This document shows positions 491 to 20,170 of a DNA stretch of 64,000 nucleotides, in pieces (within the stretch, counting starts at the first letter, position 1; the number at the start of each line of letters is the position of its first letter). The notes beneath the pieces are model-generated. The model had not been told where the DNA came from and did no database searches. It saw only the letters and a list, made by a program, of their open reading frames with translations. The translations under genes and the position numbers were made by a program. Source of the stretch: a virus (taxonomy: Duplodnaviria > Caudoviricetes). Where the stretch lies: positions 32,001 to 96,000 of the IMG/VR virus record IMGVR_UViG_3300049009_000811; one strand, written 5' to 3'.

Positions 491-817
491 ATGATCAACG
501 AAGACCTGTACCTGGACTTCCCCCCGGTACGACCGGTCCCGGAAGGCAATAAGACCTGCCCAGCCTGCGAAGGTCACGGCGGGTACAACGTGAGGCTGAA
601 CGCCTACCCTCTGCACCGGTACGAGAACACCAGGGAGAACCGGCACCTGCACGCCCACTTCAGGCACGGGTGCGTCAACTGCAACGGCTTGGGCTACGTC
701 CCCGAGGACCAGGATTGCGTCCACCAGTGGGGCGAGAGGCGTACCGTCGGCATGTCGCAGCACAGGTACTCCTGCGTCAACTGCGGAAGCCAGTGGACCG
801 TCGACAGCGGCGACTGA
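491..817 (+). CDS. small Zn-finger (CxxC) protein
   Basis: CPAC, CVNC, CVH and CVNC motifs; AAGGAG RBS. Confidence 0.75.
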   Translation: MINEDLYLDFPPVRPVPEGNKTCPACEGHGGYNVRLNAYPLHRYENTRENRHLHAHFRHGCVNCNGLGYVPEDQDCVHQWGERRTVGMSQHRYSCVNCGSQWTVDSGD

Positions 818-877
818 GCCGTTCCCCGTCTGCCCGGAACCCTACAGACGTAACCGAAACCCAACAAGGAGAACCAG

Positions 878-1255
878 ATGCCTTTCAGAACGTCTGACAA
901 AGTAGTGAAGGAGGACTTCTTCCTCCAGTTTGTGTACCAAAAGCCTTATAGCTTCGACGCGCCATCACACATACTCGCCAACAGTATCGCCAACGCCCTG
1001 ATGGATCGCGGACTATCCAGGGAAGCCGCCCAAAGTTTCATCTACAGCAAACTGTATCGTTGGGCATTTGATTTTGGCGGTCTTACAGAATCTATCGAAA
1101 AGGCAGGAAAAGATTTTGTCGGGAGTCTGTCGGAAGAGGATATCGAAGCCGATACCCTCAATGAGTATGGTGGCGAATTCAAAAAAGTTCCTGACGATTA
1201 CGAGTTCAGAAAACAAACCCAACAAGGAGATAGAGATGCCTTTCAGAACGTCTGA
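878..1255 (+). CDS. hypothetical cassette protein
   Basis: ORF behind motif A (817) and RBS; first 11 codons duplicated at 1236. Confidence 0.75.
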   Translation: MPFRTSDKVVKEDFFLQFVYQKPYSFDAPSHILANSIANALMDRGLSREAAQSFIYSKLYRWAFDFGGLTESIEKAGKDFVGSLSEEDIEADTLNEYGGEFKKVPDDYEFRKQTQQGDRDAFQNV

Positions 1256-1439
1256 CAAAGTAGTGAAGATTGACATATTCGTTTTAAGGGATGGATCTTT
1301 CAAATATTACTGTTCGACTGATTCTTCGAAAACTTGCAAGGAAGCAAAACAAAAGTTTTTGCAAAGCCACTCTGGTTTTAAAAATGATGAAGTTAAGGTT
1401 TCCAAGGTTAAGGCAAGAGAAGAAAGAGAAGGTGCGTAA
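1236..1439 (+). CDS. hypothetical protein (shares N-terminus MPFRTSDKVVK with the 878 ORF)
   Basis: AAGGAG RBS and ATG at 1236; duplicated leader. Confidence 0.7.
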   Translation: MPFRTSDKVVKIDIFVLRDGSFKYYCSTDSSKTCKEAKQKFLQSHSGFKNDEVKVSKVKAREEREGA

Positions 1440-1696
1440 TGTTGAAAGTAAAAGTAGAAGATTTAAAAGAAGGCGATCTTGTCGATTTAGAAAGCTGCCC
1501 CTACATGAAAGATTATCAATGGGCTAAGTGGGATATGGCTATAGTTTCCAGTGTAACAAAAGAATTTGTTGCTCGTTTTAATGAAAATCGTGTGGTAGTA
1601 AGTTATCGAGATATAGTCTGCCATATAGATACTGTTGATTATCCACTCGGAACTGTTCTGGAAGCCGTTCCCCGGCTACCCGGAACCCAACAATAG
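1439..1696 (+). CDS. hypothetical protein
   Basis: Coupled to the upstream stop (TAATG); 3' end runs through motif A at 1663. Confidence 0.65.
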   Translation: MLKVKVEDLKEGDLVDLESCPYMKDYQWAKWDMAIVSSVTKEFVARFNENRVVVSYRDIVCHIDTVDYPLGTVLEAVPRLPGTQQ

Positions 1697-1728
1697 ACGT
1701 GACTGATAACTTTAACAAGGAGAATGAT

Positions 1729-1953
1729 ATGAGCGATAAGAAAGTTTTGGACTTGACTGAGAAGTTTGATGGATTGCTGAATGAGGCGCAAGAGATCAAG
1801 GCTTCTTCCGAAGAATTGACAAGCCACCTTGATTGCGCCGGGACCTGCGAGACCGCGGAAGACTTTTTCGCTAACGTGAAAGACGCGCTTCTCGTGGCGA
1901 ACGAAATCGTAAAGGAACTGAAAAAAACACTGAAGAAAAACAAGGGAGTGTAA
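1729..1953 (+). CDS. small coiled-coil hypothetical protein
   Basis: Motif A and AAGGAG RBS upstream. Confidence 0.75.
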   Translation: MSDKKVLDLTEKFDGLLNEAQEIKASSEELTSHLDCAGTCETAEDFFANVKDALLVANEIVKELKKTLKKNKGV

Positions 1954-1957
1954 AGAC

Positions 1958-2671
1958 ATGGAAAAGGCTAGACTGACGAACAGCATCCTCGGCTGGAGGC
2001 TGATACCGCTCACCGAAGGTGCTATACCGATCCTGTCGGAACTGTACGGCTCCGACTACGACAAGATGAGCAACAAGGAGAAATCCGTCGGCGAGGGCAG
2101 GGACTGCAAGGATATCCTGGAGAACATCAGGAACGTGGCGCGCGACCTCGGCATCAGGGTGTCGGCGTGCGGCAACCGGCTCGCCCCGACCCTCCGCCTG
2201 TGGGAGGCGAAGAAGGCACAGAAGCCGGAGACCATCTCCGTCGAATTCAGGTGGTCGTGCTGGAGCGAGGACTGGACCGACTGGGGCGAGCACCTCGAGA
2301 CGATGCGCAAGGCGTTCTCCGGGGAACGAAACCCGGTCGAAGTGCGATCCAACCCGCGGTCCGCTTCGTACGCGCACGGGGGAACGGTCACGATAAGCAA
2401 GGGTCGCGCCGAAGGCATGTTCTACTCCACGTGGGACGACGACGAGGCGCTCGCCTCGACGCTCGGCATCGAATGCGACGAGGGGTTCAGCGAGATGGTC
2501 CCCTACATCCACGCGGCGGAATCCAACGGCACAGTCCGGGAGTTCTCCGCCAAAGCCAGGACGTTCGAAACCCTCATGCGCAAGATAAAGAAAGCCGAGA
2601 TGTCCATGATCGAGGACGACGAGGAAGCCTGGGACCAGATAAGGGCGTGCTTCACCGGGAGCGACAAATGA
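1958..2671 (+). CDS. hypothetical protein
   Basis: 237-aa ORF with GC3-rich codon usage and RBS. Confidence 0.75.
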   Translation: MEKARLTNSILGWRLIPLTEGAIPILSELYGSDYDKMSNKEKSVGEGRDCKDILENIRNVARDLGIRVSACGNRLAPTLRLWEAKKAQKPETISVEFRWSCWSEDWTDWGEHLETMRKAFSGERNPVEVRSNPRSASYAHGGTVTISKGRAEGMFYSTWDDDEALASTLGIECDEGFSEMVPYIHAAESNGTVREFSAKARTFETLMRKIKKAEMSMIEDDEEAWDQIRACFTGSDK

Positions 2672-2838
2672 TCGACGAGAACGAGATACGCAAGCTGGAG
2701 AGGTGGAGCAGGGAGGAACTGTCCCTGCTCGTCTCGAGGACCGCGGAAAGGGAACTCCAGAGGCTCCGCGAGGAGAACCTGGCGCTGAGGGAAGAACTGG
2801 ACAGGCTGAAGAACCAAACAGACAAGGGAGGCGCGTGA
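2668..2838 (+). CDS. small coiled-coil protein (MIDENEIRK...)
   Basis: ATGA overlap with the upstream ORF. Confidence 0.6.
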   Translation: MIDENEIRKLERWSREELSLLVSRTAERELQRLREENLALREELDRLKNQTDKGGA

Positions 2839-2948
2839 TGCTGCAGGACATCGTTTTCGGATTCTGCGTGGTATACCTGGCTGTCGTTTTGCCGGTCACG
2901 TTCTGCGTCGCCGTCGTCTCGGTGATCGTGAGCATTTTCATTTTGTAG
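2838..2948 (+). CDS. small membrane peptide (MLQDIVFG...)
   Basis: GGAGG RBS, TGATG overlap, hydrophobic 36 aa. Confidence 0.5.
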   Translation: MLQDIVFGFCVVYLAVVLPVTFCVAVVSVIVSIFIL

Positions 2949-2962
2949 GAAACGAGTAACAT

Positions 2963-3514
2963 ATGCCGAACTGGTGCATGAACATGGTGACCGTGTCACA
3001 CCCCAACCCGAAGAAGCTGCAGCTCCTGGTCGACGCGTACAACGCCGACAGGATGCTCGACATAATGGTGCCCGAGCCGGAATACGCGCGGGACGTCACC
3101 GGGGAAACCCGATCCGACATCCTCGACGTCCAAGACCTGGCTGCGCTGGGCGACGCGCAGATGGAACTCGAGAAGTCCAGGTACGCCTGGCGTCTCGGGA
3201 ACTGGGGATGCAAGTGGGACGTGAGGAGGTCTCACGGCGAGCCGGAAGCTTCGGTCAAGGAAGGATCGGCGACCATGCGGTTCCACAGCCCGTGGCAGCC
3301 TCCCCTGCGCGCCTACGAGATACTGCGCGACGAGGGGTTCACGGTCCAAGCCTACTACTTCGAGCCGATGATCGGGTTCTGCGGGTACGCCGACGAGAAG
3401 CAGCAGCAGCACGTGGACATAATCAAGCCGACACGTGAATGGATAGGCGCGAACGTGCCGGCTCACGTTGACGAAGCCATGGGCGTGAGCCAGACATACG
3501 TGAACCACCCGTAG
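2963..3514 (+). CDS. DUF1281/YubB-like ferredoxin-fold protein
   Basis: MPNWCxN start, NWGCKWD, FHSPWQPP and YYFEPMIGFCG motifs. Confidence 0.75.
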   Translation: MPNWCMNMVTVSHPNPKKLQLLVDAYNADRMLDIMVPEPEYARDVTGETRSDILDVQDLAALGDAQMELEKSRYAWRLGNWGCKWDVRRSHGEPEASVKEGSATMRFHSPWQPPLRAYEILRDEGFTVQAYYFEPMIGFCGYADEKQQQHVDIIKPTREWIGANVPAHVDEAMGVSQTYVNHP

Positions 3515-3519
3515 CAGCC

Positions 3520-3676
3520 TGTGAAGCGGACCTGTGAATCGGACTTGTGAAGGTATCCTGTGAAGGCAGCCCCGCGACGGCGAGACCACGTGAAGGCAAG
3601 GGAAACGTGAAGGTGGAAGCATCGCCGCGCGTGACCGGGGCGGAACTGTGAAGCCTCCGATCCCGAGTTGTGAAGC
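3520..3676 (+). repeat. cluster of about 8 GTGAAG/GTGAAT hexamers in an intergenic region
   Basis: Copies near 3521, 3534, 3547, 3560, 3590, 3608, 3648 and 3670, next to motif B. Confidence 0.65.
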
Positions 3677-3710
3677 TTGTCCGGAGGTCAGTACACCGGT
3701 CACATCCAAT

Positions 3711-3740
3711 AAAAAAAGACCAGGGAATCTCCCTGGTCCT
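3711..3740 (-). terminator. intrinsic terminator
   Basis: GACCAGGGA-AT-C-TCCCTGGTC hairpin with an A7 tract (U-tract on the minus strand) after ORF 3746..4273. Confidence 0.75.
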
Positions 3741-3745
3741 CTCGC

Positions 3746-4273
3746 TTACTTCTCCTGTCCCGTCGCCTTGGCGATAAGGGCGCGAAGCTCGTCCCACAAC
3801 GGCTCGTCCTCGTCCCATCGGTTGGGAAGGTCCTCGAGCCTGTGAAGCATCTCCAGCATTTCGGGCGCAGCCGCTATCAGCCTGGCGTCCGCGACGCTCG
3901 ACTCCGTGTAGTAGCACCTTTCTTCCCTCTTGCCCTTCGGCACCTTCCACTCGTGACCAGCGATGAGGCAGATCCTGATCGGATACTTGTGATGGTTTTC
4001 GTCCTGGGTGAGATACAGATGTTCCGCCCTGTCGCCGACGGCGAAACCTTCGGCTTTCCAGGGTCCGGGCGTGTGAGCCATTTTTTCGCTCCTCGTGTGG
4101 TACAGGTATTCTTCTTCGTCGCATTCGACCGCGTTTATCAACTCGCCATTCGGATAGGCTTCCATAGCCTGTTCGTCCGCCTGGTCCATGTCATCCGCCA
4201 TGCAATAAAAAAACAACGTAAGTTTCGTGTCGCCTTTGTCCTCGCGCAACGACACTTTGAATGGTCTCATCAT
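3746..4273 (-). CDS. hypothetical protein, HTPGPW...LIAAAPE...AKATG family, with N-terminal extension
   Basis: MAHTPGPW and ADARLIAAAPEMLEML...ALIAKATG motifs; motif A upstream. Confidence 0.75.
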   Translation of the reverse strand: MMRPFKVSLREDKGDTKLTLFFYCMADDMDQADEQAMEAYPNGELINAVECDEEEYLYHTRSEKMAHTPGPWKAEGFAVGDRAEHLYLTQDENHHKYPIRICLIAGHEWKVPKGKREERCYYTESSVADARLIAAAPEMLEMLHRLEDLPNRWDEDEPLWDELRALIAKATGQEK

Positions 4274-4319
4274 TTTCTTTTCTCCTTTGACAATAGGGTT
4301 CCGCGTGAAGCCCGAACGG

Positions 4320-4718
4320 CTAGACCGGGATACTTATCTTGAAGTAATCCCAGGTCTTGCTGGATACATGCTCGACCTTGCCCCCGATGGACTCGACCGA
4401 TCTCGTGACCGACGACACGCCGGATCCAGAAGGGAAGAAAGCCTTCCGCACCTTCGTGACGACCCGAGCCTTGCCGCGACCCGACTTGACCTCGTCGTCG
4501 AAGAAGCCGATGCCCTTGGCTGTAGCCTCGTTCTTCAGCGCCGCTTCCTGCACCTGCGGGATCTGGTCCAGGCACTCCGCCAGAACCGTGGAAAGCTTGC
4601 AATAGCCGCAGCCCGAGGCTTTGGCGGTCGCAGCCCCACCTGGATGGTAGGCTACTGCGTGGGGGTTCATCCCCCAGGTCTTCGATTTCTTCCATTCAAC
4701 CTTCACTTCAATTTCCAT
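4320..4718 (-). CDS. hypothetical cassette protein
   Basis: Motif A (4782) and AGGAG RBS; its stop TAG is supplied by the next motif A. Confidence 0.75.
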   Translation of the reverse strand: MEIEVKVEWKKSKTWGMNPHAVAYHPGGAATAKASGCGYCKLSTVLAECLDQIPQVQEAALKNEATAKGIGFFDDEVKSGRGKARVVTKVRKAFFPSGSGVSSVTRSVESIGGKVEHVSSKTWDYFKISIPV

Positions 4719-4828
4719 TTCAAGTCTCCTTGTTGTTTCGTTTCCACACGAAGGTGGGGTTCCAGGTAAAACACGAACGGCTTCAAAAGAAAAAGGGCGA
4801 CCGTGTGAAGGTCGCCCAGGTTTCCGGA

Positions 4829-5320: not shown

Positions 5321-5593
5321 TTCTCAATCCCCTTTTTAAAGTTTCCCACCACACGATGATGGGGTTCCAGGTCTTTGGCGAACGGCTCGCCATTAGTCAT
5401 TCGTTTCAAGTCCAAAAAGATTTCTCTTTTTTTTCCTTATTTCGTTTCCCACAATTGTAGGGTGCCAGATCCGGCACGAACGGCTCGCCTGGTCCGGAGG
5501 TCAGTACACCACATTCCCCCAGGTCGGCCGTTCGCCGAAAACCTGGCACCCTACCATCGTGTGGTGGAAACAATAAAACAAGGAGACTGAGAC

Positions 5594-5770: not shown

Positions 5771-5774
5771 GGAT

Positions 5775-5803
5775 AAAGCCCCGAAATGGGGCTTTGACTT
5801 TTT
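5775..5803 (+). terminator. intrinsic terminator
   Basis: AAAGCCCC-GAAAT-GGGGCTTT followed by a T-rich tail. Confidence 0.75.
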
Positions 5804-5919
5804 ACTGGAAACCGGTGTACTGACTTCCAGAGCCAGTAACCTGGACCAGGCGAGCCGTTCGCCCTGAACCTGGAACCCTATCATCGTGTGGCGGGAACAA
5901 TAAAACAAGGAGAATGGAA

Positions 5920-6075: not shown

Positions 6076-6229
6076 GGGATATCCCGGGTTTAACGCCCGG
6101 GATTTCTCGATTCCAGGAAACCGGTGTACTGACCTCCGGAGCCAGTAACCTGGACCAGGCGAGCCGTTCGCCCTGAACCCGGAACCCTATCGTCGTGTGG
6201 TGGAAACGAAACAAACAAGGAGAATGAAG

Positions 6230-6541
6230 ATGAACAAGATCGACGAGATGCTGGAAGCGAAGATAAAGGAAGAATTGACACCGGTCGATATCGAGGAATA
6301 TTACGCGGCAGCACTCGACGACATTTACCCCGTCGTTGAGATAGGACATTCCAGATTCAGCCCGAGCAGTATCGTAAGGGAACTTTCCCCGACAGATTTC
6401 CGCTGCGGGATGAACGACTACATCGACGGCGACGACACGCTCGAGTACGTGGCTGACGAATGGTACAGAGCCGACGAAATCCAGAAGCTCCGCGAGGAGA
6501 TCGAGGAAGAGATCGAGGCTGCGGAAGCGGAAGAGGACTAG
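6230..6541 (+). CDS. acidic phage early protein
   Basis: Motif A (6162); very D/E-rich; LDD..PVVEIG..F.PS....L.P..FRCG.NDY pattern. Confidence 0.75.
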   Translation: MNKIDEMLEAKIKEELTPVDIEEYYAAALDDIYPVVEIGHSRFSPSSIVRELSPTDFRCGMNDYIDGDDTLEYVADEWYRADEIQKLREEIEEEIEAAEAEED

Positions 6542-6608
6542 CCGTTCGCCGTCAACTCGGCACCCTATGTTCGTGGCGGGAAACTTAACTTTAACAGGAG
6601 AATAAACC

Positions 6609-6806: not shown

Positions 6807-6807
6807 C

Positions 6808-7278: not shown

Positions 7279-7525
7279 TTATTTCCGCGTTCCGACCTGG
7301 ACGGAAGTCTGCAGGGAGTACGCGGCGAACGTAGGAGGGGATCGACCCGAGCAGGCTTGGATCCTCACCCCATGGGACACCTGGGAACGCAACCCAGCCT
7401 ATTCCGGCGTGTTCGCGGACGCCCCGCACCCGTTCATCTCGGTGGAAGACTTCTACGACGACGACGGAGGCGCGCAGGCTCCGGCACCGGAGAAGCCGAC
7501 TGAACCGGACGACTGTCCGTTCTAG
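7268..7525 (+). CDS. hypothetical protein
   Basis: AAGGAG RBS; stop overlaps motif A at 7524. Confidence 0.7.
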   Translation: MEDDYFRVPTWTEVCREYAANVGGDRPEQAWILTPWDTWERNPAYSGVFADAPHPFISVEDFYDDDGGAQAPAPEKPTEPDDCPF

Positions 7526-7585
7526 CCGTTCCCCGGCAACCCGGAACCCTATGGTCGCAACCTAACTTCAACAGGAGAATGAAAG

Positions 7586-7762
7586 ATGAGTCATACGCCA
7601 GAGAAAATAAATTCCGAGTTGCTCAACATGCTCATGAGAATGGTCGATGAATGTTCTTATTCCCATGTCACCCCCGAGGGCGTTGAAATCGCCAGCAGAC
7701 CGTGCCCAATCACGATGCAGCATGCCCGCGAAGCCATCGCAAAGGCGACAGGAAAAAGCTAG
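7586..7762 (+). CDS. 58-aa protein MSHTPE...AIAKATGKS (AKATG family)
   Basis: Motif A (7524), RBS; C-terminus paralogous to the 8295 and 3746 ORFs. Confidence 0.7.
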   Translation: MSHTPEKINSELLNMLMRMVDECSYSHVTPEGVEIASRPCPITMQHAREAIAKATGKS

Positions 7763-7819
7763 CCGTTCGCCCGACATCTGGAACCCTATGGTCGTGTGGT
7801 GGAAACGAAATTATAACCT

Positions 7820-8236
7820 ATGAGGATTCATGCCATGAAAAGAACAAGAACAGTAGAAATTGAAGATGTTTTAGATTCATGTGTAGAAACAGCAATCGAT
7901 AAAGTTAAGGATTTACTGGAAGAATACATAAAAGAAAACGATTCCGGTCCTTTGCCTGATATCAATAACGACTTGGATTACTCTGGCTCCGTTCACGAAA
8001 TAATCGATAGGTCTGTACCAGATTATTACAAGGTCATAGACGATACTTGGTATCTTTATAAAGAAGATTTGATCGAAGCTTACGAAAATTCCGGAATGGG
8101 CGACAATCCCATGGATGGCAACGGAACAGTTGCGATATATTGCTATATCGAACAAAAAGTAGGCGAATGGTACCGAAAAGAAGCGCAAGACATATTTGAT
8201 GAAATAGTCAGTAAGAAGAAGAAAAAGAAAAGCTAG
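7820..8236 (+). CDS. acidic protein, possibly Ocr-like anti-restriction DNA mimic
   Basis: VHEIIDRSVPDYY resembles T7 Ocr IHMAADNAVPHYY; acidic, 138 aa. Confidence 0.55.
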   Translation: MRIHAMKRTRTVEIEDVLDSCVETAIDKVKDLLEEYIKENDSGPLPDINNDLDYSGSVHEIIDRSVPDYYKVIDDTWYLYKEDLIEAYENSGMGDNPMDGNGTVAIYCYIEQKVGEWYRKEAQDIFDEIVSKKKKKKS

Positions 8237-8294
8237 CCGTTCCCCGACATCTGGAACCCTACAAACGTAACTCAACACTAACAGGAGAAGAATA

Positions 8295-8585
8295 ATGACC
8301 GATAAACCAAAGTGGGACTTAGAAGAAGTTCCTTTTGAAAACAACGATCCTGCGGGTGGATGGTATCTCCACTTTGATACAGAGGCAGATCATGAAGTTC
8401 TATACATGAGTAAAAGCAATGTATCAGAAGAACAAGCCAATCTAATAGCAGCGTCGCCAGAGTTGCTGGAAACGCTGAAAGACATTTCTGTTTGGTTGAC
8501 AGCACCTTCTACGGACAAAGCAACCATCGATCATTGGAAGCAAAAGGTTTCAACAGCCATCGCAAAGGCGACAGGAAAAAGCTAG
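8295..8585 (+). CDS. hypothetical protein (LIAASPELL...AKATG family)
   Basis: Motif A (8235), RBS. Confidence 0.75.
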   Translation: MTDKPKWDLEEVPFENNDPAGGWYLHFDTEADHEVLYMSKSNVSEEQANLIAASPELLETLKDISVWLTAPSTDKATIDHWKQKVSTAIAKATGKS

Positions 8586-8651
8586 CCGTTCGCCCGACAT
8601 CTGGAACCCTATGGTCGTGTGGTGGAAACGAAACAAAAGGGAGACATAGAG

Positions 8652-8916: not shown

Positions 8917-9032
8917 GCCCGGAACCGGTGTACTGACCTCCGGAGCCAGCCTGTCTCCAGGTTCCAGCCGTTCGCCGACCAGGCGGAACCCAATCATTGT
9001 GGGAAACAACAAACCTTAAAAGGAGAATGAGG

Positions 9033-9926: not shown

Positions 9927-10032
9927 CCACGCGGAAACCTGGAAGCCCTGGCGTGACTGCCGGGGCTCCAGCCGTTCCCAGTCAACCCGGAACCCAATCA
10001 TTGTGGTGGCAAGCAACAAACTATAAAGGAGA

Positions 10033-10268: not shown

Positions 10269-10355
10269 CCCCGGAAACCGGTGTACTGACCTCCGGAAAG
10301 CGAAACTCGGCACATATATAGGGTCATAACCGCCGTCCAACAAAAGGGAAGACCG

Positions 10356-11036
10356 ATGAAGACACAAAACAGGAAAGCCAAGAAACACCACAACCAGATC
10401 AACGAGGGGTTCGTCCGATACTCCTTCTCGGAGTACGTCCACAGGCAGGGCGACGAGCAGTTCGACGAGTTCCTCGGGATCGGGAAGGCTTTGGGCGGCG
10501 CGTGGAACAAACTCACCCAGAACCAGCGCCCAGGCGGCGTTCCCAGAGCTTCCGCCCCGGATGCGGCACCAGCACAAGCGCAGCGCCCAAGCGCGCCGCA
10601 GCGGATACTGCAGCGCGCCGCAGAGCAGAAGCCAAGCTCGTTCACCCCGGACCAAGCCAAAATGGCGAAACTGAAATCGAGGAACGTCCACCTGACACGC
10701 GTCGAGAAGTCTTTCGATGACATAGCCAACGTGCTGCAGAAACCGCAGCCCGGCGAGGACATGGCTGCGATATCGGGCATGAACGTATACGTGAAAGAGA
10801 AATTGATCCCGGCGCTGAAGAACCAGTTCCGCCCTTCGATGGACAAGAAATGGAAACTGCTCGACGACGCGACCCCGAACGACGTCTCCAGGAGCGGCGG
10901 CATGATATCCGCCAGGGAAACCAACCCAGAGGGCGGCGCGCCTAGGGGCAGCGGCTCGGCACCGGGTTCAGGCTCGGCTAAAGACCAGATCTCCAAGTCC
11001 GCCGGGAGTTACTTCGACAGGCTCAGCGGCAGGTAA
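10356..11036 (+). CDS. hypothetical protein, late-type (possible internal virion protein)
   Basis: CATATATA box at about 10313 instead of motif A; YSFSEY...DE motif near the N-terminus. Confidence 0.7.
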   Translation: MKTQNRKAKKHHNQINEGFVRYSFSEYVHRQGDEQFDEFLGIGKALGGAWNKLTQNQRPGGVPRASAPDAAPAQAQRPSAPQRILQRAAEQKPSSFTPDQAKMAKLKSRNVHLTRVEKSFDDIANVLQKPQPGEDMAAISGMNVYVKEKLIPALKNQFRPSMDKKWKLLDDATPNDVSRSGGMISARETNPEGGAPRGSGSAPGSGSAKDQISKSAGSYFDRLSGR

Positions 11037-11200: not shown

Positions 11201-11269
11201 CTTTCATTCTCCTTCAAAGTTTTTGTTTCCCGCCACACGAACATAGGGTGCCGCGTGGCGGGCGAACGG

Positions 11270-11698
11270 CTATTCGGAAGCCATCATCGCGTCCCTCACC
11301 CTCGACGAGTGGTTGGTGCAATGGTGGTCATTCCCGGCGTAGGACTCGCCGCATCCCCTGCATACATTCGTCGCGGGCTTGACCCAGCTTTCGTTGCTCA
11401 AAGCCCACCGCAGCCGCTTCTCCGCGCGCTCCAGCGACACCTTCGCCTCGTCGGAACCGGGTTTCGCCTGCAGCGTCAACACCAGGTCGAGGACCTCGTC
11501 GCACCAGGCTTCGCTCGGGAACTGGTCATCCATCGCCCCGGTCAGCGTCTCCAGCACGTAAGCGAGGGTACGTTCCCGGCGGAAGAACTTGGACGTCCTC
11601 TCCCGGTCCTTCTGCCACACGACCATGCTTAGGTCATGAGCGAGGAACGCAGCGTGCGTCTCCAGCAACATCCCGATAACCTTCTTCTCCTTCTCCAT
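11270..11698 (-). CDS. hypothetical protein with C-terminal CxxC/HC
   Basis: AAGGAG RBS before MEKEKK; degenerate motif A upstream. Confidence 0.7.
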   Translation of the reverse strand: MEKEKKVIGMLLETHAAFLAHDLSMVVWQKDRERTSKFFRRERTLAYVLETLTGAMDDQFPSEAWCDEVLDLVLTLQAKPGSDEAKVSLERAEKRLRWALSNESWVKPATNVCRGCGESYAGNDHHCTNHSSRVRDAMMASE

Positions 11699-11946
11699 GA
11701 CACGACTCCTTTCAAAAGTCCGATCTCCCGGGTTCCGCCCGACATAGGGCGAACGCCATACCCGCGAACCACCATATAGGTGGCGAGGTGCCAGACCCGG
11801 CAAGAACGGCTAAGTCATTCGCCCGGAACCGGGAAAGTTTGCATGGAAAAACCGATATTTTCCTTTTTCCCCGTTCCGTGAGCCGTTCGACAGCGGACCG
11901 GCACCCCATAGCCGTGTGACAAACATCAAAACGAGAGGGATTGATC

Positions 11947-12657
11947 ATGGGAATGTTCTCCTGGTGCTGCAAGGGATGCGGCGAAGAGATATGCCGCGGC
12001 GAGTTCGCCCGGCTCAACGGAAGAAAACAGGTCTACGGCGGATACGGCGACGGCGACCACGACGAATACGTCGCCTGGCACCAGCGCTGCTACGGCGCTG
12101 CGACCAAGGAACAGAAGCTGGACGACAACCCCAGCAAGCCCGCGAAAAACCAGGGCATGGGCGCCGCGAGGCTGCGTTTCCTCGAGGGCTACGACGAGGG
12201 CAAGCCGGTCACCTACACCGCGGTCCTGTACGCCTACGGCGAGAAGGGGCAATTCGAGTTCTTCTACACCAACTCCGGCAAGCTGGAGAACCAGACGTCC
12301 TATGACGCCCTCTACGAGGCTGAGGTCGACAAGCCTTCCGGTTTCGACTACGAGGCGTGGACGCTGCTCCCAGCGGAGGACAAGAAGAAGGCGAAAGAGG
12401 AACACCTGAAGAAGATAGAGGAAGCAATCGGCTTCCCTTCCCCGCGCGACAACGCCAAGGTTTTCGGCTCGAGGGTCGATGCGCTCGTGTTGGCACTCGC
12501 GGCGCTGGATCGCGCGGCGCTGGCTCGCGACCTGCCGGAGGAGTGCGGGGGGAGATACCATCTGATCGTCCTCGGCAGGCAGGGCGATATCGAGGGATCC
12601 GTCTACGAGCGGGTAAGCCGTTCGGAAACCGACCGGAACCCCACCATCGTAAAATAA
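11947..12657 (+). CDS. hypothetical protein with N-terminal Zn-binding motif
   Basis: MGMFSWCCKGC...GxYGGYG...HxxC; motif A (11881). Confidence 0.75.
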   Translation: MGMFSWCCKGCGEEICRGEFARLNGRKQVYGGYGDGDHDEYVAWHQRCYGAATKEQKLDDNPSKPAKNQGMGAARLRFLEGYDEGKPVTYTAVLYAYGEKGQFEFFYTNSGKLENQTSYDALYEAEVDKPSGFDYEAWTLLPAEDKKKAKEEHLKKIEEAIGFPSPRDNAKVFGSRVDALVLALAALDRAALARDLPEECGGRYHLIVLGRQGDIEGSVYERVSRSETDRNPTIVK

Positions 12658-12831: not shown

Positions 12832-12986
12832 GCAATGGCGGGCATCCACACACACTGAAGTCCCGCCGCGGGAAAGCCAGGGAAACCTGGCTTCCTCCCA
12901 TTCCACCCATATTACGGCTGAGCCGTTCACGGAAACCCCGGAACCCCATTGTCGTGACGGAAACCAAAACCAACGGAGATCGAAAG

Positions 12987-13902: not shown

Positions 13903-14002
13903 AGCCCGCGATCCCGCAAACGTGAAGCCGACCGGTGAAGCCGTTCCCAGACCGACCGGAACCCCATGGGCATGTGACGGAAACCGAACCAAGGAGAATG
14001 AA

Positions 14003-14107: not shown

Positions 14108-14335
14108 GACAGGACGTGAAACCCGAAACCAAAGCCCATGGGGATTGCCCCGTGGGCTTTTCCTTTTAGGCGCCGGAACACGTGAAGCCCGGACCCGACG
14201 CCGGACCGCGTGAAGCAGCCATGCCGACGTGAAGCCGTGAAACCGGTGTACTGACCTCCGGACCCTGGCGCGGAAACGAGAAAGCGAGCGAGTCATCGCT
14301 GACTCGCTCGCTTTACCCCCTAGACCGCGCGGAAC

Positions 14336-14758: not shown

Positions 14759-14831
14759 TTTTCCGTCTCCTTTGTTTTATTGTTCCCTTCACACAACCAT
14801 AGGGTGCCAGTTCGCCAGCGAACGGCTCAGC

Positions 14832-15017: not shown

Positions 15018-15133
15018 TTCCGATCCCCTTGATTTTAGTTTCCCGCCACACGACAATGGGGTTCCAGGTCGCCAGCGAACGGCTCGACCGAAGCCCTACT
15101 GGGACCGGAAGTCAGTACACCGGTCCCAGTCAT

Positions 15134-15163
15134 AAAAAAAGCCTAGGTCGATGACCTAGGCTT
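15134..15163 (-). terminator. intrinsic terminator
   Basis: A7 plus GCCTAGGTC-GAT-GACCTAGGC; related hairpins at 15468 and 16278. Confidence 0.75.
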
Positions 15164-15168
15164 CCATT

Positions 15169-15339: not shown

Positions 15340-15496
15340 GTTTCGATCTCCTGAAAGAGTTTAAGTTCCACACCACACAACCATGGGGTTCCAGGTCGAC
15401 CACGAACGGCTCAGCCGAAGCCCCACTGGGACCGGAAGTCAGTACACCGGTTCCAGCCATGAGAAAAGCCCAGGTCATTGACCTGGGCTTTTCTGG

Positions 15497-15820: not shown

Positions 15821-16109
15821 CTTTCGATCCCCTTCAAAGTTTAAGTTCCACACCACACAAACATGGGGTTCCAGGTCATCCCCGAACGGCTCAGACTATA
15901 CTAGATCGATCCGCGGCAACAACGCAATACACCTAGCCGACGAAGCCCCGAAACGCCACCTGTTTTCGACGATCACCGGTAAATCGACCTGCCATGCCAT
16001 TCCAGGACATATGGACGAAAACAGGCACATGACCTGGCGAGCCGTTCACGGTCGACCCGGAACCCCATGGTTGTGTGATGGGAAACAAAAAACTTTCAGG
16101 AGATCGAAA

Positions 16110-16271: not shown

Positions 16272-16423
16272 GGAAAAGCCTAGGTCCAAGACCTAGGCTT
16301 TTTTCATGCCCGGAAACCGGTGTACTGACCTCCGGACCCAGTGGAACCAGGTTCCAGCCGTTCGCCAAAGACCCGGAACCCCATCATCGTGTGGCAAGCA
16401 ACAAACTTTCAAGGAAATCAAAA

Positions 16424-16585: not shown

Positions 16586-16661
16586 GCCGAGCCGTTCGCC
16601 GAACACCCGGAACCCTATGGTTGTGTGGTGGGAAAAGGAAACAAAAAAAGGAGAATGGAAA

Positions 16662-16865
16662 ATGGAAGAACTGGCAGAAATGATCTACGACCGAAACCAG
16701 GAAACCATCTCGTCATTCTTCGAGGACGAGCGGTACGGAGAGGACGAATTCCTCGATGAATTGGTGGACGACATCGTCTCGGCGATCCAGATCGCCGAGG
16801 GCGAGGAATTCGCCCCCGAGGTCGAGGACCTCATCAGGGAACAAGTCATGAACGGTCTGACCTAG
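16662..16865 (+). CDS. 67-aa hyper-acidic protein
   Basis: Motif A (16590), AAGGAG RBS; strongly D/E-rich. Confidence 0.7.
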   Translation: MEELAEMIYDRNQETISSFFEDERYGEDEFLDELVDDIVSAIQIAEGEEFAPEVEDLIREQVMNGLT

Positions 16866-17007
16866 GACTCAGCCCAGGCTAAACGCCCGGGCTTTCCCTT
16901 TTCCCGGAAACCGGTGTACTGACCTCCGGAGCCGGACCCCTGGCGAGCCGTTCGTGAACTACCCGGAACCCTACAAACGTAACTCAACCCCAACCGGAGA
17001 ATCGAAG

Positions 17008-17598
17008 ATGTCTACTTGCGAGAAGAAACTGGTAAATGCAGGAAACCTCACCGGAGACCTTTCCGGGATATGGGGCGACGCGGGCAAGCGATATGATTGC
17101 GATATTACCGAACACCTTTCCGGTCTCACGGGCGACGCGACTAATATCAGGGGCGACGTGTCCAAAATCCGTGGCGACGTTACCGGGCTCAGGGGCGACG
17201 TGTCCGGGATCTGGGGATATGTGTCCGCGATCACGGGCGACGTGTCAAATCTCAGTGGCGACGCGTCCTTGTTCAGCCGGTGGGGATACGTGTCCAACCT
17301 CTACGGCGACGTGTCCGGGATCAGGGGATATGTGCACAATCTCAAGGGCGACGTTACCGGGATCAGGGGCGACGTGTCTGGTCTCCGTGGCGATGTCACC
17401 GGTCTCAAGGGCGGTGTGTACGGGCTCCGTGGCGATGTCACTGGGATCGAGGGAAGCGTGTACTGGCTCCGTGGCGACGTCGAAGACCTGGTTCTCCAGG
17501 GAAAGCTGAAGCGTACGGGCAAACATGAACCCGAGAAGACCAAGGAATCTCGACTGGTCGAGAAGCCAGACGATATCAAGACCTTGTTCGGCAAGTAA
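17008..17598 (+). CDS. heptapeptide-repeat (GDV(S/T)GLx) protein, paralog of 9033
   Basis: About 20 seven-residue repeats; motif A (16946). Confidence 0.8.
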   Translation: MSTCEKKLVNAGNLTGDLSGIWGDAGKRYDCDITEHLSGLTGDATNIRGDVSKIRGDVTGLRGDVSGIWGYVSAITGDVSNLSGDASLFSRWGYVSNLYGDVSGIRGYVHNLKGDVTGIRGDVSGLRGDVTGLKGGVYGLRGDVTGIEGSVYWLRGDVEDLVLQGKLKRTGKHEPEKTKESRLVEKPDDIKTLFGK

Positions 17599-17679
17599 AA
17601 ATCAGAAGCCGTTCCCAATCAACCCGGAACCCTACCGTCGTGTGGCGGAAACGAAAAAAACAAACAAGGAGAATGGAAA

Positions 17680-17907
17680 ATGGCTGATTTCACCTGGGCT
17701 TGCGGCACTGATCCCGTGGATTCCCAATCGAGGATCGCCGTCATGGGACACATCCACCGCGAGACCCTGCAGAGTCACGCCTTCAGGGTCCAGGAGCTGC
17801 AGGGCGAGCTCCAGCAGGCTAACGAACGGATCCTCCTCCTCGAGGGATACCTCAAGGCGATGAGCGAGGGGGAGAGTTTCGCCCTCCCACCGAACCTGGG
17901 CATCTGA
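17680..17907 (+). CDS. small coiled-coil protein
   Basis: Motif A (17607), AAGGAG RBS. Confidence 0.7.
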   Translation: MADFTWACGTDPVDSQSRIAVMGHIHRETLQSHAFRVQELQGELQQANERILLLEGYLKAMSEGESFALPPNLGI

Positions 17908-17971
17908 CCCTGCGTCCTAGCCGTTCCCAATCAACCTGGAATCCCATAACTTAAACCAAGGAGACCGAAAC

Positions 17972-18154
17972 ATGAATGAAGCCGAATATTTCATCGCGGT
18001 AAACGCCCGCCTGGACGCCCTCGAGGCTGCCCGGGAAGAAGAACCCAAAGCCGAGAAGCACTGGAAGGACCAGATAACCTGGTCCTGCGGCACGGAAGGC
18101 TGCTACGGAAGCGTGTCCGGGATCAACATGCCCTGCAGCAACTGCGGGGGCTAG
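17972..18154 (+). CDS. small Cys-containing protein (MNEAEYFIAVNARLDALEA...)
   Basis: Motif A (17919), RBS; terminator at 18160-18190. Confidence 0.7.
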   Translation: MNEAEYFIAVNARLDALEAAREEEPKAEKHWKDQITWSCGTEGCYGSVSGINMPCSNCGG

Positions 18155-18319
18155 GACGCAGCCCTGGTTTCAAAGCCAGGGCTTGCCTTTCCCGGCAAAC
18201 CGGTATACTGACCACCGGCGCAACCTGTCCCGGACATCCCGAGCCTGCGTCCGGAAGCCGTTCCCAATCAACCCGGAACCCCATCACCGTGTGGTGGGAA
18301 ACTTAAACCTTCAAGGAGA

Positions 18320-18547
18320 ATGAAAATGATCGAAGCAAAAGAAACCGAACGCCATGGCGGCGCCTACGACAGGGGTCGCGCCGACTCCTACTACAACCGC
18401 CCCCGGCTGCCCCATATGTTCGCCGGGGCGACATACGCCAGCCCGCAGGTCAACAAAAATGACATGACCGCGGAGCAGGTGGCGGATTACAACGCCGGCT
18501 ACAACTGGAACGAGGAGTTCGGGGACAAGAAGGACTGGGGGGGATAG
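18320..18547 (+). CDS. conserved-looking phage hypothetical protein (HGGAYDRGRADSYY...GDKKDWG)
   Basis: Motif A (18256), RBS. Confidence 0.75.
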   Translation: MKMIEAKETERHGGAYDRGRADSYYNRPRLPHMFAGATYASPQVNKNDMTAEQVADYNAGYNWNEEFGDKKDWGG

Positions 18548-18589
18548 AACCCCGGCTTCCCGCGGGAACCGGTGTACTGACCTCCGGAG

Positions 18590-19460
18590 CCAGTCCGGGT
18601 CGACCAGTCTAACCAGTATCACCAGTCTCATCGGGTCGTCCCGAGCCTGCGTCCCATCTTTCCGTGAACGCCCGTACATCGAACCGTGTCCGGGTCGACC
18701 GGTCTAACCAGTATCACCAGTCTCATCGGCGCGTCCCGGCGTCCCGGTTCGTCCAGTGAAGCCAGTAGATCCAGTCTCCCCGGCAGAACCGTCCGGGTCG
18801 TCCCGAGCCTGCGTCCCATCTTTCTGTGAACGCCCGTACATCGAACCGTGTCCGGGTCGACCGGTCTAGCCAGTATCACCAGTCTCACCGGCGTCCCGGC
18901 TTTCCAGTATCGCCAGTGAAGCCAGTATGACCAGTAGCGCCAGTAGAGCCTGCGTCCAGTGACTCCAGTGGAACCAGTGGAACCTGCCGGAACCGTGTCC
19001 CGAGCCACCGCCCGGTGGCTCCCGTCTGCCCGGCTCGCCGGGGAAGCCCCGAGACGCCACCGGGTTTCGACGATCCCACGCGAATCGACCGAGAACGCCG
19101 CCTCCGGGAAACCGAGCTGGAAACGGCGACGCAGCCTGGCGTCGGTCCAGTAGCGCCAGTAGATCCGGCAGGTCCGACCCGGCACGGGCGTTGTCCGGGT
19201 CGTTCCAGCCCGGTAAAACCTGTAGAACCGGTAGAGCCAGTCGCTCCATCAGGACCTGTCCGGGTCGTTCCCGAGCCTGCGTCCCGCAGTGATATTGAAC
19301 GCCCGTACATCAAACCGTGTCCGGGTCGTCCGGTCCCGGCATGACCTGTAGAACCGGTAGAGCCAGTGGAACCTGTCCGGGTCAGTCCCGAGCCCGCGTC
19401 CCTGGTCGCCCCGGTCCGACCAGCCGGGTATGACCTGTAGAACCGCGGTTGCCCGCGTCC
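18590..19460. repeat. about 870-bp repeat-rich region with near-identical 94-bp units (18632-18725, 18794-18887; degenerate 19261-19333) and 9-bp-periodic CCAGT arrays
   Basis: Direct reading; no RBS-led ORF with normal codon usage. Confidence 0.8.
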
Positions 19461-19532
19461 CGAAGCCGTTCCCGGGCAACCCGGCACCCTACCATCGTGT
19501 GGCGGGAAACGAAAACTCAAGGAGAATGAAAC

Positions 19533-19799
19533 ATGGATGCCAAGAAAATGAGCGACGCGAACCTGAAGGCTGCGTACTGGGCTGCTTACAACAAGAAGGA
19601 AGCCGCCCACCTGGCGTGGCGCACGGAGACCGGCTTCGGTCGGGTAGCCCCGGACCTCGAGGCTGCGTTCCGGGCAGCGTGCGCGGAGTACGAGCCGCTC
19701 CTCGACGAGTGGGACGCCCGGTTCTCGTCCGAAGAGGACGACGTACGCGCCCGCGAGGCGATCGCGGACCGGTACGAGGTCAACTGGAGCGAGGAATAG
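19533..19799 (+). CDS. hypothetical cassette protein
   Basis: Motif A (19464), AAGGAG RBS; hairpin at 19807-19831. Confidence 0.75.
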   Translation: MDAKKMSDANLKAAYWAAYNKKEAAHLAWRTETGFGRVAPDLEAAFRAACAEYEPLLDEWDARFSSEEDDVRAREAIADRYEVNWSEE

Positions 19800-20019
19800 A
19801 CCGGTAGCCCCGACCACGGGGCTTCACCTTTACCCCGGAAACCGGTGTACTGACCTCCGGAGCCCGGCACCCATGTCGCCGACCGGGTCCGGACCCTTCG
19901 GGCTGCGCGGACCGTGGCGGTCATTCCCCCTATATATATTGTATCAGGCGAGACGTCCGCCGGGAACGGGCGAGCCGAAGGGTCCAGCCGTTCGCCGGAT
20001 ACCCGGCACCCCATGGTCA

Positions 20020-20100
20020 CGCGGACCGGGGGATCAAGCCCGGTCCGCGTGAAGCTACGCGTAAACATACTCAACGAGCCGGGCTAGTCGCCCGGCTTAA
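20020..20100 (+). ncRNA. candidate small structured RNA
   Basis: Motif A (19986) followed by no RBS or ORF but two hairpins (GCGGACCGGG..CCCGGTCCGC; GCCGGGC..GCCCGGC), then motif B. Confidence 0.4.
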
Positions 20101-20170
20101 CTTGGACCGGCGACCGGTGTACTGACCTCCGGAGCCGGGCTACGTCTTACAGGTCGGATGGGGGGATAGC

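Follow-up and report, generated by a model that had tools for sequence, protein, structure and literature searches.

The left part of the 64,000-nucleotide window (the whole stretch of DNA analysed, positions 32,001 to 96,000 of the viral record IMGVR_UViG_3300049009_000811) is occupied, at positions 1-20133, by a segment of an array of small genes, most of which are preceded by their own copy of a conserved element, motif A. The array is real but larger than the 20 kb assigned to it in the first-pass annotation of the window: it starts 31 kb to the left of the window, comprises about 100 small genes and covers 52 kb (genome 951-52133) of the 116-kb fragment under study (hereinafter G). This fragment represents ~24% of the genome of a very large uncultured freshwater phage. 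Motif A is conserved over 38 bp with a fixed geometry (positions 0-37; consensus A-GCCGTTC-GC-N5-RYCY-GGMACCC-N-A-Y-N-R-T-CGT); the sequence ahead of position 0 carries no information. Counting copies with an 11-nt spacer and no more than one mismatch gave 67, of which 66 are located at genome 951-51987 (a range that begins 31 kb before the window and ends at window position 19987) and one, isolated beyond the array (50974-51011, minus strand), is kept in L069. Window positions 817-20133 contain 35 copies, exactly the number given originally, a count that includes one variant with a 10-nt spacer (8236-8273, plus) and one weak, doubtful copy with GGCACCT (11774-11811, minus). Apart from the copies described below, those on the plus strand lie at 817-854, 5526-5563, 6162-6199, 6540-6577, 7761-7798, 8966-9003, 9970-10007, 11881-11918, 12921-12958, 13939-13976, 16040-16077, 16356-16393, 16590-16627, 17607-17644, 18256-18293 and 19464-19501, and those on the minus strand at 4284-4321, 4745-4782 (immediately behind a terminator, without motif B), 5350-5387, 5448-5485 (with no ORF at the usual distance), 11234-11271, 14790-14827 and 15374-15411. 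Adjacent copies are more similar than random pairs (0.52 vs 0.41; permutation p<0.0002), and the best-matching partner of many copies sits 20-40 copies away. The sequence of motif A matched no known consensus. Because the strict pattern gives only single matches elsewhere, both in IMG/VR contigs and in 185,579 prokaryote species genomes (596 Gb), from which the motif is essentially absent (3 single matches), a chance origin of the array is excluded.

Motif A is co-oriented with the ORF that it precedes, and in nearly all copies the ATG is found 59-73 nt past the first G of the motif. Single-gene units account for 45 of the 62 motif A units; polycistronic units have one motif A only, and their internal genes lack A yet possess a ribosome-binding site (RBS), so that motif A is not a per-gene translation signal. 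As proposed at the outset, the elements mark transcription units whose genes are small and, for the most part, ORFans; the genes are arranged in blocks of both orientations and are heterogeneous in composition (ORF GC content from 35% to 68%). The proposal that most genes follow one layout holds for motif A, which precedes most units, but not for motif B and clear terminators, which accompany only about one third. The stop codon of the upstream gene, which motif A had been noted to supply, indeed overlaps the 5' edge of the motif in 18 of the 54 copies with a same-strand upstream gene; 15 of these stops are TAG, the G being motif position 1, and three are TGA or TAA ending at position 0. Three ORFs run into the motif, including the two noted earlier, 1439-1696 and 11947-12657, which contain the plus-strand copies 1663-1700 and 12616-12653, respectively. 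Among the array proteins, 93 of 103 are singletons. For at least seven cargo genes, the unrelated phage L116 has a homologue, in each case behind L116's own element. The conjectured anti-defence cargo is represented by at least one gene that looks Ocr-like: the acidic 133-aa protein encoded at 7835-8236 (plus strand, 36.6% GC) probably is an anti-restriction protein of this kind, and its gene is 80% identical at the nucleotide level to one in an unrelated phage of 37% GC, the similarity being confined to the ORF.

The second element, motif B (GGAAACCGGTGTACTGACCTCCGG), is a continuous 29-nt block behind T-runs that is present in 21 copies, 15 of them, again as first counted, within window positions 817-20133. 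It is asymmetric, intergenic and oriented with transcription, and is normally found 9-45 nt ahead of A and, at 14 of 18 loci, ~22 nt past a GC hairpin with a T-run. The cores on the plus strand are at 5812-5830 (with a terminator hairpin at 5776-5795), 6121-6139, 8925-8943, 16317-16335, 16911-16929, 18200-18218 (two mismatches), 18569-18587 and 19842-19860, and at 14243-14261, the end of a plus-strand block; those on the minus strand are at 5494-5512, 15105-15123 and 15432-15450, and at 3681-3699, behind a terminator at the end of a minus-strand block. Three genes have motif B but not A; no A accompanies the plus-strand cores at 10278-10296, followed by ORF 10356-11036, and at 20114-20132, with ORF 20171-20545 beginning 38 nt on. 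Motif B and the 44-copy element of L116 agree at 11 of 13 positions (AACNNGTGTACTG), a level of similarity that was reached by 15 of 20,000 shuffles, and LR756511.1 has a TGTACT-core element that likewise occupies a post-terminator position.

The layout of motif A fits a promoter of the sigma70 family, with a block at the -35 position, a 17-nt gap and a -10-like NAYNRT. Block 1 (AGCCGTTCGC) would take the -35 position, block 2 (YGGMACCC) would form the 3' half of the gap that comes next, and the -10-like hexamer N-A-Y-N-R-T, followed by CGT, would retain the two key bases, A at -11 and T at -7. From this arrangement, we infer promoter function, with a predicted start site at approximately position 38 and a leader of 22-35 nt containing a strong AAGGAG; each of the ~67 copies would start a short, mostly single-gene unit in a 52-kb hyperplastic region. 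The protein that reads blocks 1 and 2 may be a phage sigma factor, a MotA/AsiA-like appropriator or a phage polymerase, and its gene presumably lies in the three quarters of the genome that were not sampled; the 116 kb yielded no gene for a sigma factor or an RNA polymerase, although the PF00940 search carries no weight here, since its control did not match anywhere either. The -35 and extended -10 blocks are unlike any known sigma specificity, so the geometry could be a coincidence. In favor of a promoter, canonical sigma70 sites are not enriched (6 observed vs 6.5 expected). Among orthologous copies from two strains, the divergence is 1.4% in block 1 and 3.7% in block 2, compared to 15% in the spacer and 13-19% in the flanks, and the motif is preserved even where upstream coding sequence covers it. 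Tandem copies of motif A number two in G, three in the relative and two in L082. In the middle promoters of T4, a MotA box at -30 is combined with a sigma70 -10 through sigma appropriation. By analogy, motif A could represent another case in which a non-sigma70 box replaces the -35 element at a fixed spacing from a -10-like TAnnnT-type hexamer, which would imply a phage-specific factor, although the box sequence is unrelated, there is an extra invariant block at -20..-13, and no MotA or AsiA homologue was identified here.

An alternative that we regard as rather improbable is that motif A functions at the RNA level, either as a site cleaved by a phage endoribonuclease or as an element of translation or stability, in long polycistronic transcripts. 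The distance from A to the RBS is fixed; many copies have no upstream terminator, so that read-through transcripts would include A; and an epsilon-like TTAACTTTA is found, with at most two mismatches, in the leaders of 16 of the 67 copies (2 expected). However, neither a conserved secondary structure nor covariation is present, the motif has the same folding energy as shuffled sequences, and no Rfam family matched; moreover, operon-internal genes manage with an RBS alone, the strongest conservation lies 30-65 nt upstream of the RBS, the motif has the bipartite, fixed-spacer look of a DNA recognition site with a -10-like A..T signature, and the tandem copies and the placement right behind terminators suit promoters. 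For motif B, we lean slightly toward a second promoter class, related by homology to the one repeated element of an unrelated phage with a cassette array, even though some copies have no downstream gene and thus fit a promoter poorly. Conceivably, but with a lower probability, B is instead an oriented operator at which a phage regulator acts, as a road-block in the manner of stoperators or as an activator, or else a terminator that a phage polymerase recognizes by its sequence and that is placed behind the intrinsic one. Such a role would suit its asymmetry, intergenic location, co-orientation and position behind terminators, its presence at convergent block ends without a downstream gene (3699, minus; 14243, plus), and the 3-4 tandem copies with a 25-nt period that overlap the RBS of the first leftward gene and resemble an operator array. 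Against this, B is the sole conserved upstream element of the three genes that lack A, a terminator 7 nt ahead of a start codon would silence the gene, 44 genes of L116 have nothing conserved upstream but the homologous element, and both this element and that of LR756511.1 are best read as promoters. The stoperators of cluster A mycobacteriophages, 13-nt sites of L5 gp71, resemble motif B in being asymmetric, present in ~20-30 copies in short intergenic gaps and co-oriented with transcription, but B is 29 nt long, comes here with no known repressor or integrase, and looks like what is presumed to be a promoter in another phage.

Sister strains from lake metagenomes, all of them metagenome assemblies that are 75-97% identical, differ from G by at least 23 rearrangements; 23 junctions distinguish G from the relative Ga0209500_10000060. 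The footprint of motif A is touched by 17 of these (p=1.6e-7 under a uniform null), and 11 connect two such footprints (p=3e-4 even against an intergenic-only null). Under the latter null, single breakpoints in A are not significantly enriched (p=0.21), so the association in part reflects the survival of intergenic breakpoints only. Motif B, at one of the 23 junctions, is not a preferred breakpoint and is not the recombination site. As for the early suggestion of rearrangement at the elements, gene gain, loss, replacement and reordering between close strains do occur at A. In the window, the A-to-A joins 7557|8582 and 15089|15814 involve the plus-strand copies 7524-7561 (left) and 8584-8621 (right) and the minus-strand copies 15047-15084 and 15854-15891, respectively. 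At plus-strand copies, the relative lacks the cassette 16947-17607, both edges of which lie at block 1 (copy 16946-16983), and contains an additional cassette between duplicates of the 5853-5890 copy, a 404-nt insertion at the 5' edge of the 17919-17956 copy, and an intact cassette in the place of the gene-less remnant 19986-20023; the B core 19842-19860 has a junction with the relative at its 3' end. At four deletion junctions, the promoters of the relative are chimeric, with the crossover in block 1 (two) or in the spacer/block 2 (two). The identity used by most A-A junctions is 9-21 nt, within an overall range of 9-79 nt, and is long (74-79 nt) at two, including a 74-nt overlap at genome 9266|11588; three clean junctions fall within -6..+9 of block 1 (genome 28194|28621, 48951|49607 and 49919), and others on Shine-Dalgarno sequences or in the leader. 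One pair of A copies encloses a 131-aa gene in one strain and, as a replacement, an ankyrin-repeat gene in the other; the cassette order is swapped in L073; a paralogue cassette is relocated in inverted orientation; and in L074, the TAG of an inserted ORF is fused to the motif A edge (CCGTTC). The strain comparison thus shows that promoter-to-promoter cassettes are deleted, inserted, replaced, reordered and inverted by recombination between A copies. Because these copies share invariant 8-10-nt blocks and, within subfamilies, up to ~75 nt, they would act as portable homology.

That the strain differences are artefacts of de Bruijn assemblers jumping between A repeats seems very improbable: every compared sequence is a metagenome contig, A copies are identical over 74-79 nt at two junctions, and a repeat-induced misjoin could mimic the one with a 74-nt overlap, genome 9266|11588, but the exact identity at most A-A junctions is below the usual k-mers, replacements import unrelated intact ORFs (an EAEYF paralogue and the ankyrin gene, for example), point divergence of 5-25% separates the strains as well, and several junctions recur identically in the independent samples Ga0114980, Ga0209299 and Ga0209500. 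Hardly more probable is the integron-like scheme, in which cassettes would travel as circles, cut and joined at the 5' edge of A (or at B) by a dedicated recombinase whose gene lies in another part of the genome. The three clean junctions close to block 1, the TAG-CCGTTC fusion in L074 and the termination of upstream genes exactly on the motif edge are in its favor, and with ~24% of the genome in hand, a recombinase could be missed; the relative has HNH_3 endonuclease genes 4 kb left of the array. In the 116-kb fragment, however, Pfam searches detected no integrase, resolvase, GIY-YIG or HNH protein, which extends the original observation that no integrase or recombinase is visible in the window. 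An attC-like hairpin was rejected, motif A being unable to fold so; it has neither hairpin nor arm symmetry, and a 4-bp dyad is broken, without compensation, in 28 of the 67 copies. The involvement of B in a single junction and the variable length of homology are also at odds with a site-specific reaction. Like integrons (IntI/attI/attC), the array consists of unrelated small genes of heterogeneous GC content, each bounded by a repeated element, and cassette content differs among close relatives; unlike in integrons, no tyrosine recombinase was found in the fragment, the element is 5' of the gene and promoter-like, and the cassettes, predicted to be self-expressed, occur in both orientations with variable crossovers. 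The integron-like reservoir initially envisaged is accordingly not upheld. Judging from the junctions, the array is a case of short-homology recombination between repeated promoters rather than of a site-specific enzyme, because crossovers occur at varied places in A, over 9-21 nt of identity, and at Shine-Dalgarno sequences.

The comparison drawn at the outset with the promoter-early stem-loop (PeSL) cassettes of T4-type phages (Arbiol et al. 2010, PMC2839356; Comeau et al. 2014, PMC4122927) is apt: in those phages, homologous recombination between the modules accounts for the changes that map to them in close relatives. Both systems feature dozens of conserved promoter-bearing intergenic modules before ORFans, hyperplastic regions, associated terminator stem-loops, an upstream stop codon at one module edge with an SD and ATG at the other, and insertions, deletions and replacements between close relatives at the modules. 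By contrast with PeSLs, motif A is not a sigma70 consensus but bipartite and GC-rich; the terminator is a separate, optional element instead of being part of the promoter, and a second conserved element, B, is located between the two; the 67 copies form one 52-kb block; and the carrier does not belong to the T4-like myoviruses but is a huge phage that is uncultured. In this array, the principle known from the PeSLs of T4 recurs on a larger scale and with another promoter. Lambdoid phages, too, have conserved boundary or linker sequences and evolve in a modular fashion. As in these phages, short conserved sequences at gene boundaries are the preferred crossover points, but the linker here is a highly repeated promoter within one genome, which makes intragenomic shuffling possible. 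Altogether, we consider it likely that motif A is a phage-specific promoter whose repeated copies provide the homology for recombination of promoter-to-promoter cassettes. The array would then be a fast-turnover store of small early-type genes, some of them from a pool common to unrelated phages.

The small genes of this phage are organized in cassettes headed by a 38-bp promoter-like repeat (motif A, positions 0-37), and the cassette array is much larger than first reported: 52 kb with about 100 genes and 67 copies of this putative promoter, all with an exact 11-nt spacer. Between genome positions 951 and 51987 (coordinates of the whole contig) there are 66 of these copies, and an isolated copy is located on the minus strand at window position 51010. 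The 35 copies of motif A and 15 copies of a second repeat, motif B, that the first-pass annotation counted in window 817-20133 were recovered exactly by repeat search and scans. The information profile of motif A is A(0)-GCCGTTC(1-7)-G-C-N5-R-Y-C-Y-GGMACCC(19-25)-N-A(27)-Y-N-R-T(31)-C-G-T-R-W, with no information upstream of position 0; the GCCGTTC region is denoted block 1 and YGGMACCC block 2. In nearly all copies, a start codon preceded by a Shine-Dalgarno sequence is found 59-73 nt downstream. The A-headed units, 45 of 62 of which consist of a single gene, come in both orientations, each with its own motif A, and the heterogeneous base composition of the cargo, noticed at first pass, is borne out by the array ORFs, which range from 35% to 68% GC. 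A hairpin with a T-run precedes a few copies of motif A; most abut the previous stop codon without a hairpin.

The overlap of stop codons with the first bases of motif A, part of the original description, involves 18 of the 54 upstream genes on the same strand, and 15 of these 18 stops are TAG; the ORFs that run into the motif, two of which had been described before, are three in number. Stop codons do favor the motif edge, and we read the overlap as compaction together with a stop-promoter joint that passes on with the cassette; the overlap would fit a role of block 1 as a frequent joint without proving it. A 79-nt, 100% identical repeat (window 7732-7810 and 8555-8633) covers motif A together with the final 9 codons (..AIAKATGKS*) of each of two different ORFs, which suggests recombination joints, or perhaps gene conversion, extending into coding ends. 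A 106-aa protein from a third strain has the same ..AIAKATGKS* tail. In the leaders that follow motif A (e.g., window 6578-6600), a TTAACTTTA-like sequence is found ahead of AAGGAG, in 16 of the 67 cases with at most 2 mismatches (2 expected); the 'epsilon' translational enhancer of T7 gene 10 is similar. Leaders of this kind, with CTTAAC/CTCTAAC, are also seen in two other phage sequences, L116 (Ga0214923_10000568, a contig of an unrelated phage) and LR756511.1.

The array belongs to a single IMG/VR virus contig of 115,719 bp, of which the window covers bases 32001-96000 and for which the CheckV completeness estimate of 24% implies a genome near 0.5 Mb. The contig encodes an rIIA homologue, baseplate-wedge proteins, a tRNA nucleotidyltransferase-like protein and two C5-methyltransferases (window 40332-43641). 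A 3917-aa ORF (window 52120-63873, plus strand) has tape-measure-type matches in its C-terminal third, so that either the tail is very long or the protein has several functions; this ORF had prompted the idea of an N4-like phage, which was dropped given that the ORF matches tape-measure families rather than the virion RNA polymerase. Among public phage records, the closest is that of an uncultured huge phage of 595 kb, LR756511.1, with a protein identity of only 34-44%; queries of the GenBank phage set (megablast) and IMG/VR with motif A, motif B and the rIIA protein yielded no usable close relative. Rfam yielded only a tRNA, and nothing for motif A. A tRNA-Glu gene with the anticodon CTC (window 371-443, minus strand) lies within the array, its neighbors being encoded on the other strand. 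CCGG and CCWGG are frequent in or beside both motifs, with CCGG/CTGG before MACCC in motif A, CCGG twice in motif B, and CCTGGACCAGG in the B-A linkers among such sites; conceivably, if speculatively, methylation by the two encoded enzymes might be linked to promoter recognition.

The geometry of motif A is that of sigma70-family promoters, that is, two elements 17 +/- 1 bp apart and a -10 hexamer with A at its second and T at its sixth position. Positions 3-8 occupy the slot of the -35 hexamer, and positions 26-31, 17 nt further on, make up a -10-like hexamer, with A27 present in 64 of the 67 copies and T31 in 50; these two conserved bases correspond to the A at -11 and the T at -7 that sigma region 2 flips out. 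From this geometry, the start site is predicted near position 38, which would give leaders of 22-35 nt. The host sigma70 consensus (TTGACA/TATAAT) is absent from the motif, and sigma70-like sites number 6 where 6.5 are expected. For sigma54, which requires GG and GC exactly 10 bp apart (TGGCAC-N5-TTGC), GGMAC is present and the -12 position reads T-C-G-T, not TTGC; the ECF, sigma28, sigma54 and Bacteroidetes-type consensus sequences, compared by eye with motifs A and B, do not fit either. The hairpin promoter of the N4 virion RNA polymerase, with its 5-7-bp stem and 3-nt loop, was also considered, and no such hairpin is found in motif A or B. Purifying selection on the blocks is visible between strains: over 21 orthologous pairs of motif A, the spacer has diverged by 15% and the flanks by 13-19%, block 1 by only 1.4% and block 2 by only 3.7%. 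The strict pattern has only 3 single matches among 185,579 prokaryote species, each represented by one genome, and only single chance matches in IMG/VR, so the specificity behind the motif is phage-borne. The Pfam profiles for sigma70 regions 2 and 4_2 have no match in the 116-kb fragment (~24% of the genome), and neither does the profile for T7-like RNA polymerase (PF00940), the control for which matched no genome either. On a further metagenome contig, L082 (Ga0114978_10000157), two tandem well-formed copies of motif A (6337 and 6424, plus strand) follow a T-run at the start of a divergent operon, so the motif is not tied to cassettes only. That contig has no protein similarity to the present fragment and comes either from elsewhere in the same huge genome or from a different phage with the same promoter.

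Sister strains were identified by a metagenome scan with the motif A pattern, one as a 101.8-kb contig (Ga0209500_10000060) and others as shorter contigs from four other samples. The large contig, over the 52.8 kb compared, is 75-97% identical to, and colinear with, genome 1-55744. When junctions inside tandem-repeat protein genes are excluded, 23 remain, 17 of which touch the footprint of motif A (-10 to +80) and 11 of which join one motif A to another. The proposal that rearrangement breakpoints fall at the repeats holds for motif A; motif B, found at one junction only, is not a preferred breakpoint. Compared with uniform placement, the excess of junctions touching motif A is significant (p=1.6e-7). 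With a null confined to intergenic DNA, of which motif A footprints make up 40%, significance is lost for the one-sided excess (p=0.21) and kept for the A-to-A joins (p=3e-4). Survivorship therefore accounts for part of the association, yet exchange between copies of motif A is real. Direct alignment shows that, at four deletion junctions, the promoter of the relative is a chimera of two copies from the reference genome, with two of the crossovers located in block 1 (9-21 nt of identity) and two in the spacer or block 2; at a fifth junction, 74 nt are identical. The junctions outside motif A are located at AAGGAG Shine-Dalgarno sequences or start codons. The events include deletion or insertion of 1-3 cassettes, a change in the number of tandem motif A copies (2 versus 3), a swap of cargo between the same two copies (a 131-aa gene versus an ankyrin-repeat gene of ~290 aa), replacement by a gene that has paralogues elsewhere in the reference genome, and an additional, inverted cassette that encodes a protein with 57% identity to the product of a reference gene 23 kb away. 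At two other loci, the cassette order is swapped (L073) and an inserted ORF has its TAG fused to the edge of motif A (L074). Assembly artefact is an unlikely source of these differences because the identical stretches at most junctions are too short for an assembler to go astray, independent samples share several of the junctions, and the replacements bring intact foreign ORFs.

The process that could generate such an array is short-homology recombination between repeated sequences, followed by selection for viable products. Homology at the junctions extends from 6 to 79 nt, crossover positions vary within any short conserved sequence, and no recombinase was found in 116 kb, which is the pattern that short-homology recombination predicts. 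The same mechanism has been put forward for the promoter-early stem-loop modules (PeSLs) of T4-type phages (PMC2839356). As in the PeSLs, a repeated intergenic module is located directly upstream of ORFans in a hyperplastic region, and the breakpoints of indels and replacements between close relatives fall in the modules; a difference is that an early promoter of the host sigma70 consensus belongs to the PeSL. The earlier reading of the array as shuffled expression units stands, with the exception of its integron-like mechanism. A site-specific system of that kind is not supported: apart from the variable crossovers, the profiles for integrase (PF00589, IntI) and resolvase (PF00239) have no match in the 116 kb (~24% of the genome), and the same is the case for the GIY-YIG and HNH Pfam profiles. 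Two HNH_3 (AP2-type) homing-endonuclease-like ORFs (plus strand, 118-861 and 681-1592 of locus L068) are encoded in the sister strain, ~4 kb to the left of the array and past the end of the reference contig. Integron cassettes are promoterless, have one orientation and depend on a common Pc, in contrast to the units described here, and attC is a foldable imperfect inverted repeat 3' of each ORF, whereas motif A contains only a 4-bp GTTC/GAAC dyad, the third pair of which is broken in 28 of the 67 copies without compensation; the folding energy of the motif is the same as that of shuffled sequences (MFE -5.6 versus -5.0). In short, the array of this huge phage follows a variant of the PeSL principle in which the putative promoter is an undescribed one.

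Motif B is a continuous 29-nt block, GGAAACCGGTGTACTGACCTCCGGAGCC, that is usually found ~22 nt after a GC hairpin with a T-run (present ahead of it at 14 of 18 loci) and 9-45 nt before a motif A. For a promoter of a single-subunit (T7-like) RNA polymerase, one would expect an unbroken conserved stretch of ~20-29 nt together with a gene for such a polymerase; the stretch is there, and the PF00940 profile matched nothing in the fragment, nor did its control match any genome. Three leftward-facing tandem copies with a 25-nt period (genome 805-873) mark the left boundary of the array and end 7 nt before a start codon, the GGAG of motif B being the Shine-Dalgarno sequence of the first leftward gene; the relative has four tandem copies at the same boundary (L068 5393-5470). 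The unrelated contig L116 (55 kb, 37% GC; also loci L117-L120) has an upstream element of its own, TCAACTTGTGTACTGTATTGG, in 44 copies within 20 kb, ahead of small genes and each followed by a leader hairpin. This element is identical to motif B in 11 of 13 positions (AACNNGTGTACTG), a match attained by 15 of 20,000 shuffles. LR756511.1, from which motif A is absent, also has its own array (loci L086-L115, record 0.7-46 kb), with exact copies of AAGCTGTAC in the motif T-A-AAGCTGTAC-t-a-A; 64 of 77 copies of TAAAGCTGTAC are in the first 46 kb (6 expected). The element is co-oriented with small genes, usually after a hairpin with a T-run, with an ATG 35-47 nt downstream. The elements of these two phages are best read as promoters since they are the only conserved upstream elements in both. 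By homology and position, we favor, with some reserve, motif B as a second promoter class, and this is most likely its role; an oriented operator is a less probable interpretation of the same element. Two products of genes preceded by motif B only had no match in the ESM Atlas.

Among the array proteins, 93 of 103 are singletons, and there are only two paralogue families, one of eight members with repeats and one of two members in opposite orientations; the array brings together unrelated genes and is not a product of duplication. The eight-member coiled-coil/heptad-repeat family is scattered through the array (genome 1018, 9260, 10411, 13135, 28689 and 29974; window 9033 and 17008), each member with its own motif A, and copy number and repeat length differ between strains. 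The GC-rich region at window 18600-19400 contains a CCAGT-type repeat with a period of 9 nt, along with a tandem repeat of 162 nt, and differs in copy number from the relative. Pfam scans of ~47 array and flanking proteins were almost all blank, the exceptions being rIIA-like, AAA ATPase, pentapeptide repeats, DUF6717, DUF6036 and the coiled-coil repeat family. An acidic 133-aa protein (window 7835-8236, plus strand), the gene for which has 36.6% GC compared with 55% for the genome, is a member of a large family. The family profile has T7 Ocr (gp0.3) as its top two PDB matches, near full length, with E about 0.02; of 20 members of the family, 6 match the Pfam ocr profile (PF08684; best E 5.8e-4), although the window protein itself does not; and Ocr is the best Foldseek match of the AF2 model (pLDDT 93; probability 0.95, TM 0.54, E 0.25). 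These matches are convergent but weak, below formal thresholds, and suggest an Ocr-like protein, that is, a possible anti-restriction DNA mimic. Its closest relatives are encoded in L116, with 80% nucleotide identity confined to the ORF, and at least seven cargo genes have homologues there, in a different order; for neither the L116 phage nor the Ocr-like cargo was a cultured relative found. One could imagine unrelated freshwater phages of 37%, 42% and 55% GC, from contigs of at least 55 kb to genomes of ~0.5 Mb, maintaining large arrays of mini-genes with promoters of their own and trading cargo from a common pool. The shared core (AACNNGTGTACTG / TGTACT; motif B here) would then be both a common expression signal and an inter-phage recombination linker, and motif A a lineage-specific second promoter class for a phage-encoded sigma factor or polymerase of undescribed specificity, the two forming a dedicated two-tier system of cassette capture and expression for counter-defence genes; as a whole, we consider this scenario improbable.

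Promoter-mediated 'modular shuffling', as in T4-type phages, is thus also at work, on a larger scale, in an uncultured huge phage, and the strain comparisons provide base-level crossover maps that are rare for such phages. The two other phages with the same architecture, the cargo shared with the unrelated one, and the B-like core of the latter suggest a wider cassette economy among freshwater phages. Motif A offers a handle for tracing the transcription factor or polymerase behind the early genes of huge phages, and a means of marking out, in phage contigs from metagenomes, early genes that probably act in counter-defence.
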